The notes beneath the pieces were generated by a model. The model made no database searches and had not been told where the DNA came from. It saw nothing but the letters and a program-made list of their open reading frames with translations. Made by a program: the position numbers and the translations under genes. A stretch of 64,000 bases of DNA from positions 78,159 to 142,158 of the forward strand of contig JBAZMW010000002.1 of the NCBI GenBank assembly GCA_041649575.1, given 5' to 3'. This document shows positions 3,870 to 64,000 of this stretch, piece after piece. Each line of letters starts with the position of its first letter. Within the stretch, counting starts at the first letter, position 1. This DNA is from Patescibacteria group bacterium (GTDB lineage Bacteria; Patescibacteriota; Patescibacteriia; 2-01-FULL-39-33).

Positions 3870-4691
3870 ATGAACAATATTTACCAAGCTCAACCAGCCA
3901 AAATAATCAGTGTCGTTCAAGAATCTTTAGACACCAGGTTTTTTCGCTTGACCTTTGTCAACAAAAAATTACAAAAGGAGCTGGCTTTTCTGCCGGGCCA
4001 ATTCGTGCAAATCGGTTTGCCGGGCTGGGGCGAGTGTCCTATTAGCATCTGTTCTTCCCCCTCCAACGCCAATAAATTCTTTGAGTTAGCCATCAGAAAC
4101 GTCGGTACGCTGACTAATGAGCTTAGTCGGTTGAAAGCCGGGGAAATAGTGTTTATCCGCGGGCCATACGGCAACGGTTTTGATATCGATTTTTCCAAAG
4201 ATAAGCCGCTAGTGATAATCGGCGGTGGTTGCGGTTTTGTGCCACTAAGGCCACTGATTCAGGATTTTTTGGCTGGCCGTTTGTCTAGTTCCAGCCTGCA
4301 GATATTTTATGGCTGCCTCAATGAAAAAACCCTGTTGTTTAGAAAAGAATATCATCTTTGGAATCGCCGCGCCGAACTCAACATTATTTTGGAAAAGCCG
4401 TCCAGAGAATGGAAGGGCAAAAAAGGCCTGATTACAGATCTGCTGGCCCAAAAAAAGATTTCGGCCAGCTCGGTGGCTGTTCTGGTGGGCCCGCCAGTGA
4501 TGTACAGGTTTGTCATCAAGGAACTCAAAAAAAGAAATCTGAAAGATGAAAATATTTATTTGTCGCTGGAGCGGAAAATGTATTGCGGCACTGGTGTTTG
4601 CCAGCATTGTGCCATTGGCCCGTATTATGTCTGTAAAGATGGCCCGGTTTTCTCTTGGAGCCAGCTGAAAGGTTTGCCTCAAGCGATTTAA
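3870..4691 (+). CDS. [NiFe]-hydrogenase group 3b gamma subunit (FAD/NAD(P)-binding oxidoreductase with C-terminal 2Fe-2S cluster, HydG/AsrB-like)
   Basis: Ferredoxin-NADP reductase-like fold motifs (RxFS-type FAD site, GGGCG NAD site) and C-terminal CGTGVCQHCAIG Fe-S motif. Confidence 0.7.
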   Translation: MNNIYQAQPAKIISVVQESLDTRFFRLTFVNKKLQKELAFLPGQFVQIGLPGWGECPISICSSPSNANKFFELAIRNVGTLTNELSRLKAGEIVFIRGPYGNGFDIDFSKDKPLVIIGGGCGFVPLRPLIQDFLAGRLSSSSLQIFYGCLNEKTLLFRKEYHLWNRRAELNIILEKPSREWKGKKGLITDLLAQKKISASSVAVLVGPPVMYRFVIKELKKRNLKDENIYLSLERKMYCGTGVCQHCAIGPYYVCKDGPVFSWSQLKGLPQAI

Positions 4692-41907: not shown

Positions 41908-41936
41908 TTGACAAGCTTTTTTGTTTGCCTTATTAT
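41908..41936 (+). promoter_or_regulatory. Sigma70-type promoter of the hrcA heat-shock operon (TTGACA-17-TATTAT)
   Basis: TTGACA 41908-41913, 17-nt spacer, TATTAT 41931-41936, immediately upstream of CIRCE. Confidence 0.6.
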
Positions 41937-41941
41937 TAAAA

Positions 41942-41968
41942 TTAGCACTCTAATATTGAGAGTGCTAA
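41942..41968 (+). promoter_or_regulatory. CIRCE operator (HrcA binding site), perfect consensus TTAGCACTC-N9-GAGTGCTAA
   Basis: ttagcactc taatattga gagtgctaa, 12 nt upstream of the hrcA ATG. Confidence 0.9.
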
Positions 41969-43819: not shown

Positions 43820-45730
43820 ATGCCAAAAATTTTAGGAATCGATCTGGGAACTACCAATTCCTGTATGGCCATCATCGAGGGTGGCCAGCCGAAAGTTTTA
43901 GAAAATAAAGAGGGAGCCCGCACCACGCCCTCCATTGTCGCTCTGGCCAAGAACGGCGAACGTTTGGTTGGTGTTGGCGCCAAGCGCCAAGCCGTCACCA
44001 ATCCGACTAACACCTTATTTTCCATCAAGCGTTTGATCGGGCGTAAATGGGATGACCCGGAAGTGCAAAGAGATTTGAAATTAATGTCTTATGAAATCAA
44101 GCAAGCTGGCGGGGGAGTCAAGATTGTCATGAATGGCAAAGAATACAGCCCGCAAGAAATTTCCGCCATGGTTTTGCAAAAATTGAAAGAAGATGCCGAG
44201 GCCAAGCTTGGCGAAAAGATAACCGAGGCGGTTATTACCGTGCCTGCCTATTTTGACGACAGCCAGCGCCAAGCCACCAAAGACGCCGGAGAAATCGCCG
44301 GGCTGACGGTCAAAAGGATTATTAACGAGCCGACCGCTGCGGCCTTGGCTTATGGTTTTGAAAAGAAAAAAGGCCAGCAAATCGCGGTTTATGACTTGGG
44401 TGGCGGCACTTTCGACATTTCTATTTTGGATGTGGCGTCAGATACGGTGGAAGTCAAATCTACCAACGGGGATACGCATTTGGGCGGTGACGATTTTGAT
44501 CAAAAAATCATGAATTATATTTTGGACGAATTCAAAAAGCAGGAAGGCCTTGATTTGTCCAAAGACGTCACAGCCTTGCAGCGTGTCAAGGAATCGGCCG
44601 AGAAAGCCAAGATAGAATTATCCACTCAAATGGAGACCGAGATTAATCAGCCTTTTATTACTCAAGGAGCCGATGGCAGTCCCAAACACTTGACCATGAG
44701 GCTGACCCGGGCACAACTGGAGGGTTTGGTTGTGGATTTGGTAGACCAAACCTTTGAGCCGGTTAAAAAGGCTTTAAGCGATGCCGGCATGAAGACTTCC
44801 GACGTCGAAGAGGTGGTTTTGGTTGGTGGCATGACGCGTATGCCTCTGGTACAGAAGAAAGTGGAGGAGTTTTTTGGCAAAAAACCAAATATTAGCGTTA
44901 ATCCCGATGAAGTAGTGGCCATGGGAGCAGCGGTTCAAGCCGGCGTGCTGCAGGGCGATGTCAAAGACGTCTTGCTGCTGGATGTCACTCCTTTGACTTT
45001 GGGTATCGAGACGTTAGGCAGCGTCATGACCCCGCTCATCGAAAGAAACACTACCATCCCTACTTCTAAGAGCCAGGTGTTTTCCACGGCCGCCGATAAT
45101 CAGCCGAGCGTGGAAATCCATGTGCTTCAAGGCGAACGGCCGATGGCCCATGACAATAAGACGCTGGGCCGATTCATCCTAGACGGTATACCGCCGGCTC
45201 CTCGCGGCGTGCCGCAAGTAGAAGTCAGTTTTGATATCGATGCCAATGGCATTTTAAATGTTAAAGCCAAAGACAAAGCCACTGCTCGCGAACAGCATAT
45301 TACCATCACCGCTTCCTCCGGTCTGTCCAAAGACGAGATTGAGCGCATGAAACGTGAGGCGGAAATGCACGCCGATGAAGACAAAAAGAAAAGAGAAGTC
45401 ATTGATCTGAAAAATCAAGCCGAGAGTTTGATTTTCACCACCGAAAAAACTCTAAAAGATGCCGGGGATAAAGTTGATGCCGCTACCAGAAAAGATATTA
45501 TGGATAAAGTCGAGGATCTAAAGAAAGTCAAAGAAGGTGAGGACAAGGATTTGATTAAGCGCAATTACGACGCTTTAAGCGAAGCGATTCAGAAGGTTGG
45601 CGCGGCCATGTACCAATCGGCCGGGGCCAGTCAGGCTGGAGGCGGCGCAGCGCCCCAAGAAGAAACCGCAACCGAAGGGGGGCAACAGCAGGGCCCAATT
45701 GAAGGTCAATACGAAGAAGTGAAAAAATAA
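43820..45730 (+). CDS. dnaK: Molecular chaperone DnaK (Hsp70)
   Basis: [18 protein letters not shown], and the C-terminal lid. Confidence 0.95.
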
Positions 45731-45746
45731 TTTTATTATTGTTATG

Positions 45747-45774
45747 TTAAGGGCAGGCCATGGCCTGCCCTTAA
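45747..45774. terminator. Perfect palindromic hairpin after dnaK
   Basis: ttaagggcaggcc-atgg-cctgcccttaa. Confidence 0.7.
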
Positions 45775-45777
45775 CAT

Positions 45778-46140
45778 AAAAGAAAAACGCCTCACCTATG
45801 ACAGCGTGAGGACGTGTACTTGCAAGGACAACGGCATGGTCATTCCCCGTCAGGCAGACTTTGTCTGGCCGAGATGCCCATACCCACGCCCAGCCGATGC
45901 GTTTCATTGCGAATCTGACCCGGGCTAGTGGCTTCACCGGTAAATCCGAGATAAAACCCACCCCACCAGAGGGCAGCGGCGTTATTCCTGGTCATTTCAT
46001 CTGGGAGCAGACTGGGGCACCCGGGTGCGTGGTGGAAGTCTTGGTCGAGGTTGCAGAATCGGCATGATGGTGACTGTGACATAACTGAACCTCCCTAGTC
46101 ATGTAGTTTCGCCAAGCAGAAACTGAAAGGACAATCGCTA
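45778..46140 (-). ncRNA. G+C-rich transcription unit on the minus strand (~360 nt) with consensus promoter and intrinsic terminator: structured RNA or horizontally acquired small protein gene (80-aa ORF with GGGAGG RBS)
   Basis: Minus-strand TTGACA-17-TATAAT (plus coordinates 46171-46176 and 46148-46153). Terminator hairpin cctcac/gtgagg plus a T-run at 45778-45811. Internal 80-aa ORF 45840-46082 with GGGAGG 8 nt before its ATG. Confidence 0.35.
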
Positions 46141-46147
46141 ACTTTTT

Positions 46148-46176
46148 ATTATAGATTATAAATTTATTTTTGTCAA
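46148..46176 (-). promoter_or_regulatory. Perfect consensus sigma70 promoter (TTGACA-N17-TATAAT) driving the minus-strand island transcript
   Basis: Reverse complement reads tttgacaaaaataaatttataatctataat. The -35 overlaps the ATG of the divergent + gene at 46170. Confidence 0.6.
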
Positions 46177-47096
46177 ACATGAAAGTGGGCATACCCCGAG
46201 CCGGGCTGTATCATCTTTTTCACCCTTTTTGGTCGGAGTTTTTTTCGTCCTTGGGTTTTGAGGTGGTAATCTCGGCAGCTACCGACAAAGAAATATTAAG
46301 CCAAGGCCTAAAAATTGCTAACAGCGAGATGTGTTTGCCCATGAAGATAATGTATGGCCACATTTTGTCGCTTAAAGACCGATGTGATTTTTTGTTTCTG
46401 CCGCAACTGGGAGCAGCCAAATGGGGCCAGGCCAAGCCTGGCACCAGCACCTTTTTTTGCCCTTATTTTGTCGGTCTGGCCGATTTGATGGCGGCCGAGT
46501 TTCCTCAAATGAAGTTTTTTCGTCCCCAGATTTCTTTTTGGGACAATCTTTTTCAGGCCGCCGATTGGCTGGAATTCGCCCGAGAAATCGGTTTTGCTCC
46601 GGCCGCGGCCAAGAACGCCTTTTCTCGAGCCGAAAAAGCCTACGAGGTTTTCCGGCAACAGCAAATAAAAGAAGCGCCTTTACCTCGAGACAAAAAAATC
46701 GCGCTGGTGGGCCGGCCTTATCTTATTTATGATCACCAGGCCAATCTGGATATTATCAAAAAAATTAATCAGCGGGGCTATCAGGTGGCGACGGTAGAGA
46801 TGATCCCGGATTCCGACTTAAAAACAGCTTGGCTCAAGTTGCCTCCCGATTTTGTTTCCCATTGGTATCTGACCAATAAAACCTATGGGGCCATAAATCA
46901 TTTTTCCCAAAGGCCGGATATCTCTGGTATAATTTTTTTGGTGCCCTTCAATTGCGGCCCTGATTTTTTGGTGGAGTATCTGGTTATCCAGAAAGCCAGA
47001 GCGCATAAACCCATTACCACCATCTCCATCGATGAGTCCACGGGTGAGGCCGGTTTGCTTACCCGTCTAGACGCTTTTATCGATATCCTAAAATAA
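46170..47096 (+). CDS. Acyl-CoA dehydratase activase-associated protein (DUF2229-like)
   Basis: N-terminal KVGIPRAGLYHLFHPFWSEFFSSLGFEVV matches the IGIPRAL..Y..FW..FF..LG signature of this family. Confidence 0.5.
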   Translation: MSNMKVGIPRAGLYHLFHPFWSEFFSSLGFEVVISAATDKEILSQGLKIANSEMCLPMKIMYGHILSLKDRCDFLFLPQLGAAKWGQAKPGTSTFFCPYFVGLADLMAAEFPQMKFFRPQISFWDNLFQAADWLEFAREIGFAPAAAKNAFSRAEKAYEVFRQQQIKEAPLPRDKKIALVGRPYLIYDHQANLDIIKKINQRGYQVATVEMIPDSDLKTAWLKLPPDFVSHWYLTNKTYGAINHFSQRPDISGIIFLVPFNCGPDFLVEYLVIQKARAHKPITTISIDESTGEAGLLTRLDAFIDILK

Positions 47097-47100
47097 ATCC

Positions 47101-48189
47101 ATGAAGTACGCTTCTTTGCCAGGACTAAATTCATATCTAGCCATGAAGACCATGATTCGTTATTTTGGTCATGATTTTGTCGAGATGCCAGATATCAACG
47201 AAGAAATGCTCAGCTGGGGATCGGCCCAATCGCCGGAATACGCTTGTCTGCCTTTCAAAATTTATTTAGGTTTTTTTAGGAAACTGACAGAGCAAAAAAT
47301 AGACCGAGTTTTTATTTATGGTTCTCGGGACAGGCGCGCTTGCCGGTATCTGGATTTATGCAACGGCATTGCGCAGATATTGCGCGACCATGGTCTGACC
47401 AAGATGGATGTTCATTTTTGGGGCGGCTATGGTCTGTGGCAGGGACTGGTGGATTTTAAAAAAGCAATGGGCAATCCTTCCTGGCTGAAAGTGATTAACG
47501 GCATTATCATTCATGGCTCGACTTTAACCGCTGTCGATGAATTGAACGATTTGGCCAACTGGGCGCGGCCGCGGGAAACAGTAAAAGGTTCAGTAGATGT
47601 TTGGCTAAAAAAATGGTGGCAAATCATGGGTGAGTCTTTGAGTCGTCGCAAAATAAAAGAAGCTCTAATCTTGGCTAAATCAGAATTCGCCCTGATAAAA
47701 TTAGATGATTCTCGGCCGATTATCAAGGTGGCTTTAATTGGCGATTTATTTAAAATTCATGAACCCTTTTTTCACTTTGATACTATTAGAAAACTAAACA
47801 AAATGGGCGTTGAGGTAAAGCAATCCCAAGCTTTTTCTTTGCTCTTTTTTGGTACTACCAATTTGCCCTCGCGGGCTCATTACCGCGAGCTATATGCCGC
47901 TTATCGACAAAAAGCTCAAAAATACCTAAAATCAGTGCCAGCCTCTTGCATTGATATCAGTGTTGGCGAGACCATTGATCAGCTGGAGCAAGGCGCCAAA
48001 GGCATTGTTCATTTTCAGTCTTTTGGTTGTATGCCCGATATCATGTTAAAGCCGATTTTGGATCGGGTGGCCAAGGATTTTAAAGTGCCGATCATTCATT
48101 ATTTACGCGACGTTCATTCTTCTGACGGAGCTTACCAAACCCGACTGGAAGCTTTTGTCGATTTAATAAAAAGAAAGGGAAAAATATGA
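47101..48189 (+). CDS. 2-hydroxyacyl-CoA dehydratase D-component-like protein (HgdB/BcrB-like)
   Basis: Context between the DUF2229 and activase genes; Cys-containing segments (ACLPFKIYLGFF; FQSFGCMPD) resembling HgdB-type subunits. Confidence 0.45.
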   Translation: MKYASLPGLNSYLAMKTMIRYFGHDFVEMPDINEEMLSWGSAQSPEYACLPFKIYLGFFRKLTEQKIDRVFIYGSRDRRACRYLDLCNGIAQILRDHGLTKMDVHFWGGYGLWQGLVDFKKAMGNPSWLKVINGIIIHGSTLTAVDELNDLANWARPRETVKGSVDVWLKKWWQIMGESLSRRKIKEALILAKSEFALIKLDDSRPIIKVALIGDLFKIHEPFFHFDTIRKLNKMGVEVKQSQAFSLLFFGTTNLPSRAHYRELYAAYRQKAQKYLKSVPASCIDISVGETIDQLEQGAKGIVHFQSFGCMPDIMLKPILDRVAKDFKVPIIHYLRDVHSSDGAYQTRLEAFVDLIKRKGKI

Positions 48190-49157
48190 ACCAAAAAATT
48201 TATCTGGGTATTGATGTCGGTTCGGTAAGCTGCAATGTCGTTGCTCTTAGCGAAGAGAGCCGAGTTTTGGCAAAAGTCTATATTCGCACGCAAGGTGATC
48301 CGATTCAGGCGGTGAAAAGGGGCTTACAGGAAATTAGAGATCAGGTCAACGAATTTACTGTTGCCGGCGTGGGCACTACCGGTAGCGGCCGGACTTTGGC
48401 CGGAATTTTGGCCGGAGCCGATGTCGTCAAAAACGAGATCACTAGTCACGCTCTGGCTGCCGTGCACGAAGTGCCAGGAGTCAGGACGGTTTTGGAGATT
48501 GGCGGACAGGATTCCAAAATAATTATTTTGGATGATGGGGTGGTGGTTGATTTTGCCATGAATACGGTTTGCGCCGCTGGTACCGGATCTTTCTTGGACC
48601 AGCAATGCGGCCGTCTGGGTATTCAGATAGAGGAATTCGGCGACTTGGCCCTGAAATCCAGCACCAAAATCAATATTGCCGGCCGCTGCACCGTTTTTGC
48701 CGAGTCCGATATGATTCACAAACAACAACTGGGCGCAAAACGCGAGGATATTATGCGCGGCCTGTGCGAATCACTGGTCAGAAATTATTTAAGTAACGTG
48801 GCTAAGGGCAAAAATATTTTAGAATCGATTGTTTTTCAAGGGGGAGTGGCCGCCAATAAATGTATTAAGGCCGAGTTTGAAAAAGCGTTGGATAAAAAAT
48901 TGATTATCCCAGAAAATTTTGATGTCATGGGAGCGATTGGCGCCGCCTTGTTGGCTCGGGAAGCCGAAGTTGAAAAAAGCCGGTTTAAGGGATTTGATTT
49001 GATTGAGACTGATTTTCAGACTACCGCCTTTCAGTGTTTCGACTGCGCTAACAAATGCGAGGTTATCGAATTTAAGGAAAATGGCGCAGTCATCGCTCGC
49101 TGGGGCGACCGTTGCAATAAATGGAGCGACGACCCGGGTCGTCAGCCGGAAAAATAA
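48186..49157 (+). CDS. CoA-substrate-specific enzyme activase (BadF/BadG/BcrA/BcrD ATPase family, HgdC-like), C-terminal Cys pair
   Basis: IYLGIDVGSVSCNVVAL, GVGTTGSGR, LEIGGQDSK, CAAGTGSFLD actin-fold ATPase motifs; 4-nt overlap with the upstream gene. Confidence 0.75.
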   Translation: MNQKIYLGIDVGSVSCNVVALSEESRVLAKVYIRTQGDPIQAVKRGLQEIRDQVNEFTVAGVGTTGSGRTLAGILAGADVVKNEITSHALAAVHEVPGVRTVLEIGGQDSKIIILDDGVVVDFAMNTVCAAGTGSFLDQQCGRLGIQIEEFGDLALKSSTKINIAGRCTVFAESDMIHKQQLGAKREDIMRGLCESLVRNYLSNVAKGKNILESIVFQGGVAANKCIKAEFEKALDKKLIIPENFDVMGAIGAALLAREAEVEKSRFKGFDLIETDFQTTAFQCFDCANKCEVIEFKENGAVIARWGDRCNKWSDDPGRQPEK

Positions 49158-49197: not shown

Positions 49198-49485
49198 ATG
49201 GAAAATCAAAATCAACAACCGCAGGAAATAAAAATTACTGATAATTTTGCCGGCGGTGAGTATGCCAACGGCATGCAAATTTCTTATAACAAAGAAGAAT
49301 TCCTCATTTATTTTTTCAATATTATGCCGCCGGCCGGCCGCGTTTGCGCCAAAATCATCACCAGTCCCGGACACCTCAAGAGAATGGCCGCTGTTTTGGA
49401 GGACAACTTAAAAAAGTATGAGAGTCAATTTGGTTCTGTCTCTGTAGCCGAGAATCCCAAAGACGGTATCGGTTTTAAAGTTTAA
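49198..49485 (+). CDS. DUF3467-like small protein
   Basis: 95 aa; [19 protein letters not shown]...[26 protein letters not shown] pattern. Confidence 0.45.
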
Positions 49486-62108: not shown

Positions 62109-63758
62109 TCAGCCGGGCATGTTTAGCCAATCGATGCCGATGTCCCGGCCATCGCCAGCCGTGCCGATACAAGGTGAGCCGGCATCAAGATGCCAGTCCT
62201 CGGTGAGCAACGGGTCGGCGAAGACGAGGTTGATCACGTCGACCGTCCAAGGGTTTCTCTCGCACGTTGCCAACGTGTCGTAGTTCCAGACGCAGTTGGG
62301 CCCAACTGTGTAGTAGCCGTTGCTGCAATGAAACGTTGTTTCGCAGCCAGTGACTACCGAGTCGAAAACCGCGACACTATCTTCATTGTACGCGGCTATG
62401 CCTCGCGTCGACCCGACGTGGGGCACCAAGAAGAAGCGTGGACCGACTACGACACAGTGATGGACCGATAAGCCGCTCGCGTAGTTGACCTCTAGTGGCG
62501 AGTTACTCTCGCTGGCGACTACCACGTTTCTCATAGTTAGTGCTACGCCACCTTCGCAGGCAACCGCCGCGTCGCTGTAGTACAGGTTGCGTTTGCCAGG
62601 GCCATTGTGGATGCTGATGTTGTACAACCACATCGTCCAGTCGCCTTTGGCCACCGAAACCGATTTGCCCAGATTGGCCGTGGCTTCGGCCTGGCTCGTG
62701 GGGTATGACCAGGGCGCGGTGTAGATCACATGTGGCCGGTTTGGGTTGTTATCCACGATCCGGCTCTTATCGGGCCCCAATCCAGAAATGCTGATCGTTT
62801 TGGGGTTGGGATAATAGGGGATTGTGAATCCCTCATAGTCGCCCTCGCCCAAGGTGATGTCCACCGGCGTCTCGCACGCGTCGATCGCATCCTGAATTGT
62901 CAGGTACTGCTGGCCGTTCGCGGTGACCGGCGGCTTCTCGTATCCGAACGTGATGTCCAGGTCGAGTTCGCCGTAGATGTCCACTGGCGTGTAGTCGTAG
63001 CACAGGCCACCACTGAAACGGAACGAGCCGGCGAAGTCCAGCTCGGCCACGACCAGGGGCAAAGCCGACTGATAGATGTCGCCGTTATCGTCGGTCGCCA
63101 CCAGCGTCCCGCCCTGGAAGTCGAGCGGTAAACTGAAGCCAAAATCCACTCCGTTTGCTCCTAGCGCCCAGCACCCAGGCCATTCAGTCCCTTCAGCCGT
63201 AACCAGTTTAGCACCACCACGGCCGAAGCTATAATCGCCAGGTAAACCGTTGACGCCGAATCGGAAGTAGTATGTGGGCAGGAAGTCCATTTCCACTTCC
63301 AGGTTTGTGGTCTGTCCGGCGGCGATACTCGCGGCTGTCTCCCCCCAGAAGAGTGGTGCCTTATCCGCGTCCATGATGTACACGGATGCTTCATAGTCAC
63401 CCGGCCAGATGTCTTTGGCCGTTCCGTCGAACACGCCGTCGATGATCGGGAATTCGAGAAAACGGCTGTGGTCGACTGAACCCCCAGCCTTACCCATACC
63501 GGTTCCCGCTTCCCAGAGATGGACCTGAATCCAGCGAGCTCTCGACTTGAAGGCGTCACCGATCGCAATCAACTCTGGATAGGTGAGCGATTTCTCGCCC
63601 GATGCCGCGTACAGGTTACCGTGGATCCGGATGCTACCGGTCTGTGGCTGATTCGGGTCCGGCGGTTTCGGCGTGTCTTGCGCCGGACAGCCCGCGAACA
63701 GAAATGCCGCCAACACCGTCAGCACGGCCAACGTCATACCATTCATCATCTTACTCAT
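62109..63758 (-). CDS. Secreted lipoprotein with right-handed parallel beta-helix (pectin-lyase-like) C-terminal domain; G+C-rich, probably horizontally acquired (start placed at MSKMMNGM with GGAGGA RBS)
   Basis: Lipobox LFAGC after the signal peptide. Repeated NxxxxG/VxxC-type coils in the C-terminal half. G+C content clearly above genome background. Confidence 0.5.
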   Translation of the reverse strand: MSKMMNGMTLAVLTVLAAFLFAGCPAQDTPKPPDPNQPQTGSIRIHGNLYAASGEKSLTYPELIAIGDAFKSRARWIQVHLWEAGTGMGKAGGSVDHSRFLEFPIIDGVFDGTAKDIWPGDYEASVYIMDADKAPLFWGETAASIAAGQTTNLEVEMDFLPTYYFRFGVNGLPGDYSFGRGGAKLVTAEGTEWPGCWALGANGVDFGFSLPLDFQGGTLVATDDNGDIYQSALPLVVAELDFAGSFRFSGGLCYDYTPVDIYGELDLDITFGYEKPPVTANGQQYLTIQDAIDACETPVDITLGEGDYEGFTIPYYPNPKTISISGLGPDKSRIVDNNPNRPHVIYTAPWSYPTSQAEATANLGKSVSVAKGDWTMWLYNISIHNGPGKRNLYYSDAAVACEGGVALTMRNVVVASESNSPLEVNYASGLSVHHCVVVGPRFFLVPHVGSTRGIAAYNEDSVAVFDSVVTGCETTFHCSNGYYTVGPNCVWNYDTLATCERNPWTVDVINLVFADPLLTEDWHLDAGSPCIGTAGDGRDIGIDWLNMPG

Positions 63759-64000
63759 CTCGTGTTCCTCCTCGGTTTTGCTCTTTACCAGACATAGTAA
63801 ATAGCGAATCACGCCCTGTGCGTGTTCGCTGTTGTTGCCAAATTCTCAAGGTGCAACTAATTATAATATCATATTTATTTATTTTTGTCAATAGATGTTA
63901 AAAAATAATCATTTTTTTGTTTTATTTTAGCTATTTTATTTATTTTTATTATATTAATTACTTAAAATGTTGACAGATATTTTTTAATTTGTTAGAATTT

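Follow-up and report, generated by a model that had tools for sequence, protein, structure and literature searches.

The analysed DNA is a stretch of 64,000 nucleotides (nt) of contig JBAZMW010000002.1 (assembly GCA_041649575.1) from a Patescibacteria group bacterium, referred to below as the window. The interval of 448 nt between the stop codon of dnaK (45730) and the ATG of a divergently oriented DUF2229 gene (46179) carries a compact minus-strand transcription unit, composed of a consensus sigma-70 promoter, a leader of 59 nt containing a strong Shine-Dalgarno (SD) sequence, an open reading frame (ORF) of 80 codons and an intrinsic terminator (Table 1). This unit is a protein-coding gene of a small family of Patescibacteria, located next to dnaK, and its product is likely to be a zinc-knuckle protein.

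Table 1. Features of the small-gene locus and its surroundings (window coordinates unless a locus is named; aa, amino acids; UTR, untranslated region; CIRCE, controlling inverted repeat of chaperone expression)
Feature	Position	Strand	Details
Sigma-70-type promoter	46148..46176	-	TTGACA 46176-46171, 17-nt spacer, TATAAT 46153-46148; 12/12 consensus
5' UTR	46083..46142	-	~59 nt; GGGAGG SD 46095-46090, 7 nt ahead of ATG 46082
80-codon ORF and stop	45840..46082	-	ATG 46082, TGA 45842..45840; encodes an acidic soluble protein
Intrinsic terminator of small gene	45777..45815	-	Hairpin 45815-45787, then UUUUUCUUUU; -13.1 kcal/mol, z -3.7
Perfect 38-nt palindrome	45742..45779	.	17-bp stem, 4-nt loop; between dnaK stop and small-gene terminator
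dnaK	43820..45730	+	636 aa; convergent neighbour; DnaK 70-92% identical in related loci
DUF2229 gene	46179..47096	+	Divergent neighbour; first of three-gene activase/dehydratase-like operon; Pfam
DUF2229/HGD-D/BcrAD operon	46179-49157	+	Three genes; Pfam matches
DUF3467	49198-49470	+	tblastn
dnaJ	from 49491	+	tblastn
Near-consensus promoter and CIRCE	41908-41968	+	TTGACA-N17-TATTAT; perfect CIRCE 41942-41968, 5 nt downstream of promoter
77-aa ORF	L095:3979-4212	+	MVIKPVLTG...FLPINDLELVR; also in L023 and L096; uncalled in JGI/NCBI record of L095

The sequence-only reading of this DNA had described an exact-consensus sigma70 promoter on the minus strand, and all 12 positions do agree with the consensus; it is the sole perfect TTGACA-N17-TATAAT of the window. 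Sites with one mismatch occur four times, against 0.38 expected by chance, and near-consensus promoters are therefore common in this genome. On the promoter consensus alone, the very high expression that the same reading proposed may be expected. Transcription is predicted to start near 46142. The -35 hexamer does not overlap the ATG of the divergent gene, as had been stated, but stops 2 nt short of it; ATG 46179 is taken as the start of that gene because its homologues begin with MKIGIPRAG, and the overlap is limited to an alternative TTG start (46170). The GGGAGG sequence is present, at 7 nt from the ATG and not at the 8 nt originally given, while the 80-codon ORF was found as described. A hairpin with a T-run behind it is also present. 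The hairpin was not caught by the pattern scan, probably since its loop exceeds the 8-nt limit of that scan. Folding of the 5' UTR showed no gain over shuffled sequences (z -0.05), and the leader had no match in Rfam.

When 5.8 billion proteins were searched by word index, the sole match was the NCBI call of the same genome (WC518_01710), which covers no more than the last 51 residues (45840-45992, minus strand) and starts at M30. Since the Cys/His motif lies upstream of this start, the public annotation is truncated. A phmmer search of 1.84 billion representative proteins found P0002, a protein of 83 aa with 42% identity over residues 4-77 (E 8.7e-9). Two further proteins from this search, P0003 (815 aa) and P0004 (1116 aa), were rejected as repetitive eukaryote-like proteins, whose E-values of about 1e-4 arose from 4 and 16 weak repeat matches, respectively. 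Inspection of related loci revealed an 84-aa ORF with the same motif downstream of dnaK in locus L023. In hhalign, the two-member alignment A1 matched this ORF with an E-value of 4e-6 and a probability of 87%, and a search with a three-member profile recovered it as P0005 and added P0006 (79 aa), which comes from a sister metagenome-assembled genome of the same study.

Patescibacteria related to Candidatus Buchananbacteria are so far the only known carriers of the family, whose four distinct sequences have lengths of 79-84 aa. They align end to end, and C7, C10, H18, C22, P23, R32, A35, W39, G42, L64 and G65 are invariant in all four, forming the motifs C7-x2-C10...H18-x3-C22-P23, R32-x2-A35-x3-W39-x2-G42 and L64-G65. 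These sequences represent a small, previously undescribed family of zinc-finger-like proteins. Searches of JGI metagenome contigs and of IMG/VR with back-translated patterns of the 80-aa ORF revealed no close relatives, and tblastn of P0002 against phage records gave no match.

Conservation at the locus acts on the amino-acid sequence. In the aligned codons of the window gene and P0002, identity is 0.54, 0.59 and 0.35 at positions 1, 2 and 3, with synonymous divergence (dS) saturated. The tblastx comparison of the window with the P0002 locus was significant in the ORF frame only (E 9e-13), and blastn of the window against the homologous locus gave scattered short matches, none of them collinear. 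For the closer pair, P0005 and P0006, dS is 0.85 and the nonsynonymous divergence (dN) 0.094, a dN/dS of 0.11. This is the signature expected of a translated gene under purifying selection. A comparison of related regions downstream of dnaK had been proposed as a check, and in these regions the ORF frame is indeed conserved together with the N-terminal Cys and His residues, so that the earlier suggestion of a micro-gene stands.

The possibility that the ORF is spurious, being a chance frame in a G+C-rich non-coding remnant or the result of an assembly chimera, was considered as well. A codon-usage score trained on the 45 long ORFs of the window gave -0.02 bits/codon for the 80-aa ORF, versus 0.35±0.12 for host genes and about -0.09 for off-frames. 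The G+C content at the three codon positions is flat (0.59/0.53/0.59), the antisense frame is open as well (68-75 codons), and the island is missing from the closest relatives. Composition alone thus made the ORF doubtful, and homology was needed to decide. Because homologous loci exist, this explanation is contradicted and can hardly be credited: full-length homologues of the same length, with the same motif and in the same position, occur in independent assemblies (ENA, JGI, NCBI, Logan), an SD sequence stands at the right distance in every one of them, and the frame-specific tblastx signal and the low dN/dS of the close pair point the same way.

An RNA product was considered in several forms. 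The 366-nt transcript is less stable than its dinucleotide shuffles (z +1.76 for the minimum free energy). An E-value scan of 45000-47000 with Rfam 15 gave no match for the small gene, and neither did a gathering scan of the whole window; the only matches were at chance level (E>0.4), all at the palindrome behind dnaK. ARAGORN detected no tRNA or tmRNA. RNase P RNA, tmRNA and 6S RNA, suspected from the size and G+C content of the unit, were rejected, as Rfam, ARAGORN and the folding z-score were all against them. The highly expressed small RNA (sRNA) put forward by the sequence-only reading was likewise abandoned, since there was no Rfam match at E<=1, the fold was no better than that of shuffles and conservation at the nucleotide level was absent. 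The product of the unit is a protein, not an RNA.

Another explanation could be that the unit acts mainly through its transcript or its transcription, with the ORF being secondary, either as an sRNA or antisense RNA or by insulating the DUF2229 operon, DUF3467 and dnaJ, through its strong convergent promoter and the back-to-back terminators, from read-through of the CIRCE-controlled dnaK. A promoter of consensus strength does face dnaK, its -10 region overlaps a weak opposite-strand promoter-like site of the divergent operon (46123-46152), and in relatives devoid of the cassette dnaK lies 5-93 nt from the next gene, with which it is probably co-transcribed. An insulator, however, requires neither a conserved Cys/His motif nor a dN/dS of 0.11, and it is the amino-acid sequence, not the nucleotides, that is conserved, while the RNA is poorly folded and has no Rfam counterpart. 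Such a role is highly improbable.

The sequence-only reading had also noted a G+C-rich island and suggested horizontal acquisition. The G+C content of 45812-46120 is 0.56, compared with a window mean of 0.435 (standard deviation 0.054), and falls in the top 3% of windows, but it is no higher than that of the 3' part of dnaK (0.55). The excess is peculiar to the window copy, as the homologous genes (0.41-0.51) are not G+C-rich in relation to their own contigs (0.45-0.49). Concerning acquisition, the atypical composition and codon usage of this copy remain in its favour, whereas the homologues are not G+C-rich, and their presence at the same dnaK-adjacent site in related Patescibacteria suggests that the gene has long been located at this site. 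No copies of the island were found elsewhere in the window. Two candidate signatures of a mobile element were rejected: an 11-nt direct repeat on either side of the ORF (45821/46124, 10 of 11 positions matching) is at chance level, with an estimate of about 2 expected in 700 nt, and the AT-rich inverted repeat I2 is a low-complexity promoter/terminator flank.

The window contains a second G+C-rich gene (62109-63812, minus strand; about 0.60-0.62 versus 0.435), which encodes a putative lipoprotein of 567 aa with an LFAGC lipobox and also has an atypical codon score (0.09). Its promoter (63891-63863) reads TTGACAAAAATAAAT...TATTAT, and the first 15 nt are identical to those of the small-gene promoter.

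All four proteins are acidic (isoelectric point 4.8-6.0; 5.4 for that of the window), hydrophilic and free of transmembrane segments, which suggests a protein as their binding partner and not DNA or the membrane. No match was obtained for any of them in Pfam at E<=10 or in NCBIfam, PHROGs and PADLOC at E<=1, and all matches to PDB sequences in a profile search had E>0.5. AlphaFold models built from two or four sequences reached a confidence (pLDDT) of 53, with 75 in the best block, and suggest no more than an N-terminal knuckle and a helix at 29-41; a Foldseek search of PDB with the low-confidence model returned noise only (E>7).

The prophage zinc ribbons of the Lar/RalR type (PF14354, TIGR03655) share several features with the family: a length of about 60-80 aa, a C-P-F-C-(G/N) knuckle at the N-terminus (CPFCN in P0002, CPFCG in Escherichia coli RalR) and a later E/R-x-A-x3-W helix, which the last metal ligand precedes by 16-17 residues in each case. 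In contrast, the second ligand pair of the family is H18-x3-C22, situated 7-12 residues further on, while that of RalR is C-x2-C about 17 residues on, and the family is longer by about 35 aa at the C-terminus. No member matched the Lar hidden Markov models, either PF14354 (E<=10) or NCBIfam Lar (E<=1), with E. coli RalR scoring 53.5 bits as a control. In hhalign, the alignment A3 and a single RalR sequence shared 9 aligned columns, covering the first knuckle only, at a probability of 21%. Membership in the Lar family is not claimed, as the models were unmatched and comparison with a real RalR sequence did not confirm it.

Small zinc-stabilised domains that act on Hsp70/DnaK include the CXXCXGXG centre of DnaJ (PF00684) and the DNL-type domain of Hep1/Zim17 (PF05180). 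The family resembles these in its adjacency to dnaK, which is a likeness of context only. It differs from them in having CCHC ligands with another spacing instead of C4, and its gene is convergent with dnaK, is not co-transcribed with it and has no CIRCE; no member matched PF05180 or PF00684 in Pfam at E<=10. The nearest analogues in kind are the haloarchaeal C(P)XCG micro-proteins, such as HVO_0758 and Halobacterium Brz, which are very small, soluble, one-domain proteins encoded by stand-alone genes, some of them acting as regulators (PMC11241148, PMC10716476, PMC2253796). Like the family, they are built around a Cys knuckle of the C(P)XC(G) type. The double motif that defines the haloarchaeal proteins (PMC11241148) is absent, however: the family has one C-x2-C-(N/G) and one H-x3-C-P in 79-84 aa, it occurs in bacteria (Patescibacteria), and its sequences showed no relationship to the haloarchaeal ones.

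The gene is surrounded by a heat-shock cluster. The grpE-hsp20-dnaK cluster has its HrcA-controlled start at a promoter followed by CIRCE (TTAGCACTC-N9-GAGTGCTAA, a perfect operator), and the window order is completed by the small gene on the minus strand, the DUF2229 operon, DUF3467 and dnaJ. The CIRCE upstream of grpE is the only copy in the window, and none is located at the small gene. Own transcription without this operator makes constitutive production more probable than production together with the heat-shock genes.

The palindrome between dnaK and the terminator of the small gene had been taken for the terminator of dnaK, with somewhat narrower limits (45747-45774). It is real and folds with -29.4 kcal/mol on either strand (z about -6), but AAAAGAAAAA, and no U-run, follows it on the dnaK strand, and hence it is not a canonical terminator of dnaK. 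It probably marks where the dnaK transcript ends, serves the small gene as a back-stop, or does both. Its core stem, GGGCAGGC/GCCTGCCC, is common to the window and locus L094, with different loops, suggesting that the two loci are orthologous. On the other side of the small gene, the DUF2229 gene has no recognisable SD sequence before ATG 46179, and this is also the case in its relatives. Its sole promoter-like site, CTGAAA-18-TATTAT (9/12, plus strand), has a -10 hexamer overlapping the opposite-strand -10 of the small-gene promoter.

The gene stands directly after dnaK and convergent to it in all five loci where it occurs (the window, L094, L023, L095 and L096), and in all of them it is enclosed by the HrcA/CIRCE-controlled cluster grpE-(hsp20)-dnaK-...-DUF3467-dnaJ. 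The far flank is variable and may be the DUF2229 operon, DUF3467 or a gene for a 77-aa protein; in L095, where the whole arrangement is visible, hrcA-grpE-dnaK is followed by the small gene on the opposite strand and then by DUF3467-dnaJ. The small gene takes second place in a two-gene operon, behind the 77-aa ORF, in L023, L095 and L096, while it is alone in the window, and L094 has signs of a different upstream ORF. The promoters of L023, L095 and L096 (TTGACA-17-TATGGT or TATAGT) abut the start codon of the divergent gene as in the window, and the homologous loci possess equivalent hairpin and T-run terminators. The 77-aa ORF had no match in Pfam, PHROGs or PDB, and relatives of it are present in L024 and L025, which do not have the zinc-finger gene. 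A type II toxin-antitoxin module was considered and rejected, since the gene is single in the window, it and the 77-aa partner each occur alone, and PADLOC gave no match.

Most loci with a DnaK 82-92% identical to that of the window do not carry the small gene; in L005, L008, L010, L016 and L004, for instance, dnaK is separated from the DUF2229 gene by 9-93 nt. Among about 20 related loci, including L014-L027 and L094-L096, the dnaK/DUF3467 junction is empty or filled with the DUF2229 operon, convergent small membrane proteins, the 77-78-aa family, a 140-aa ORF or a gene for 1403 aa. In L020, the region downstream of dnaK (4440-4560) holds no gene but short repeats in tandem (ATTGTCACATTGTTACATTGTCACATTGTCG) together with paired hairpins.

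It is quite possible, if short of an even chance, that the gene is real but is accessory cargo of this variable insertion slot, unrelated to DnaK, such as a small regulator, an inhibitor of another protein or the leftover of a two-gene module, and that it has stayed beside dnaK only because inserts are tolerated at this intergenic site. Besides the varied content of the slot, this is supported by the patchy distribution of the gene on the DnaK tree, by its fast evolution (25-42% identity where DnaK has about 85%), by its changing operon context, and by its own promoter and terminator together with the atypical composition of the window copy. Yet every carrier locus keeps the gene against the dnaK terminator while the other flank has changed. 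The analysis found neither an integrase nor terminal inverted repeats, and no significant duplication of the target; there was no match in PADLOC, PHROGs, phage records or viral contigs, and the 77-aa partner and the small gene occur separately, unlike the members of toxin-antitoxin pairs. The zinc-finger gene may thus be either an old occupant that was repeatedly lost or cargo that moves between relatives.

For the zinc-knuckle protein proposed here, the following mode of action can be envisaged. The invariant C-x2-C...H-x3-C-P residues would most likely bind one zinc ion, and the resulting CCHC knuckle may support the conserved helix R-x2-A-x3-W-x2-G(F/W), which in turn may bind a protein. 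The sole candidate partner indicated by the data would be the DnaK/DnaJ chaperone system, suggested by the conserved gene neighbourhood. A functional tie to this system, deduced from neighbourhood within one clade, is unlikely on balance. More doubtful still is its specific form, a Patescibacteria-specific zinc-finger cofactor of DnaK (escort, modulator or inhibitor) that would be encoded in antisense orientation inside the heat-shock cluster and produced constitutively from a consensus promoter, so that its ratio to CIRCE-induced DnaK would depend on stress.

Several observations weigh against this interpretation or parts of it. All four members belong to one clade, and their shared position could be plain inheritance and not functional coupling. 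The loci with the nearest DnaK (L014 and L015, 92%) have dnaK 5 nt from DUF3467 and no small gene, which is also absent from L021, the sister of L094. In a rough neighbour-joining tree of a 165-residue DnaK segment, the carriers fall into three subclades with sister loci that do not have the gene. Many unrelated inserts at the junction are what a permissive slot would be expected to show, and this variability weakens the tie to DnaK, while the convergent orientation and the promoter without CIRCE mean that there is no co-regulation with dnaK. The structural models are poor (pLDDT 53), zinc binding is read from the motif only, and the window copy has host-unlike codon usage with flat G+C content across codon positions.

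Annotation of metagenome-assembled genomes routinely overlooks small proteins or shortens them, and here 29 N-terminal residues with the whole Cys/His motif were dropped from the public record. The locus is a clean case of a conserved micro-protein from the Candidate Phyla Radiation that lends itself to testing and has unusually explicit signals for its expression, and its fixed position against dnaK gives one concrete hypothesis, that of a zinc-finger factor linked to the chaperone. Should the tie to DnaK prove false, this would be another lineage-restricted small gene in a variable intergenic slot. Should it prove true, a DnaK cofactor of this kind would represent a bacterial Hsp70 partner of a new class, in organisms whose proteostasis networks are minimal.

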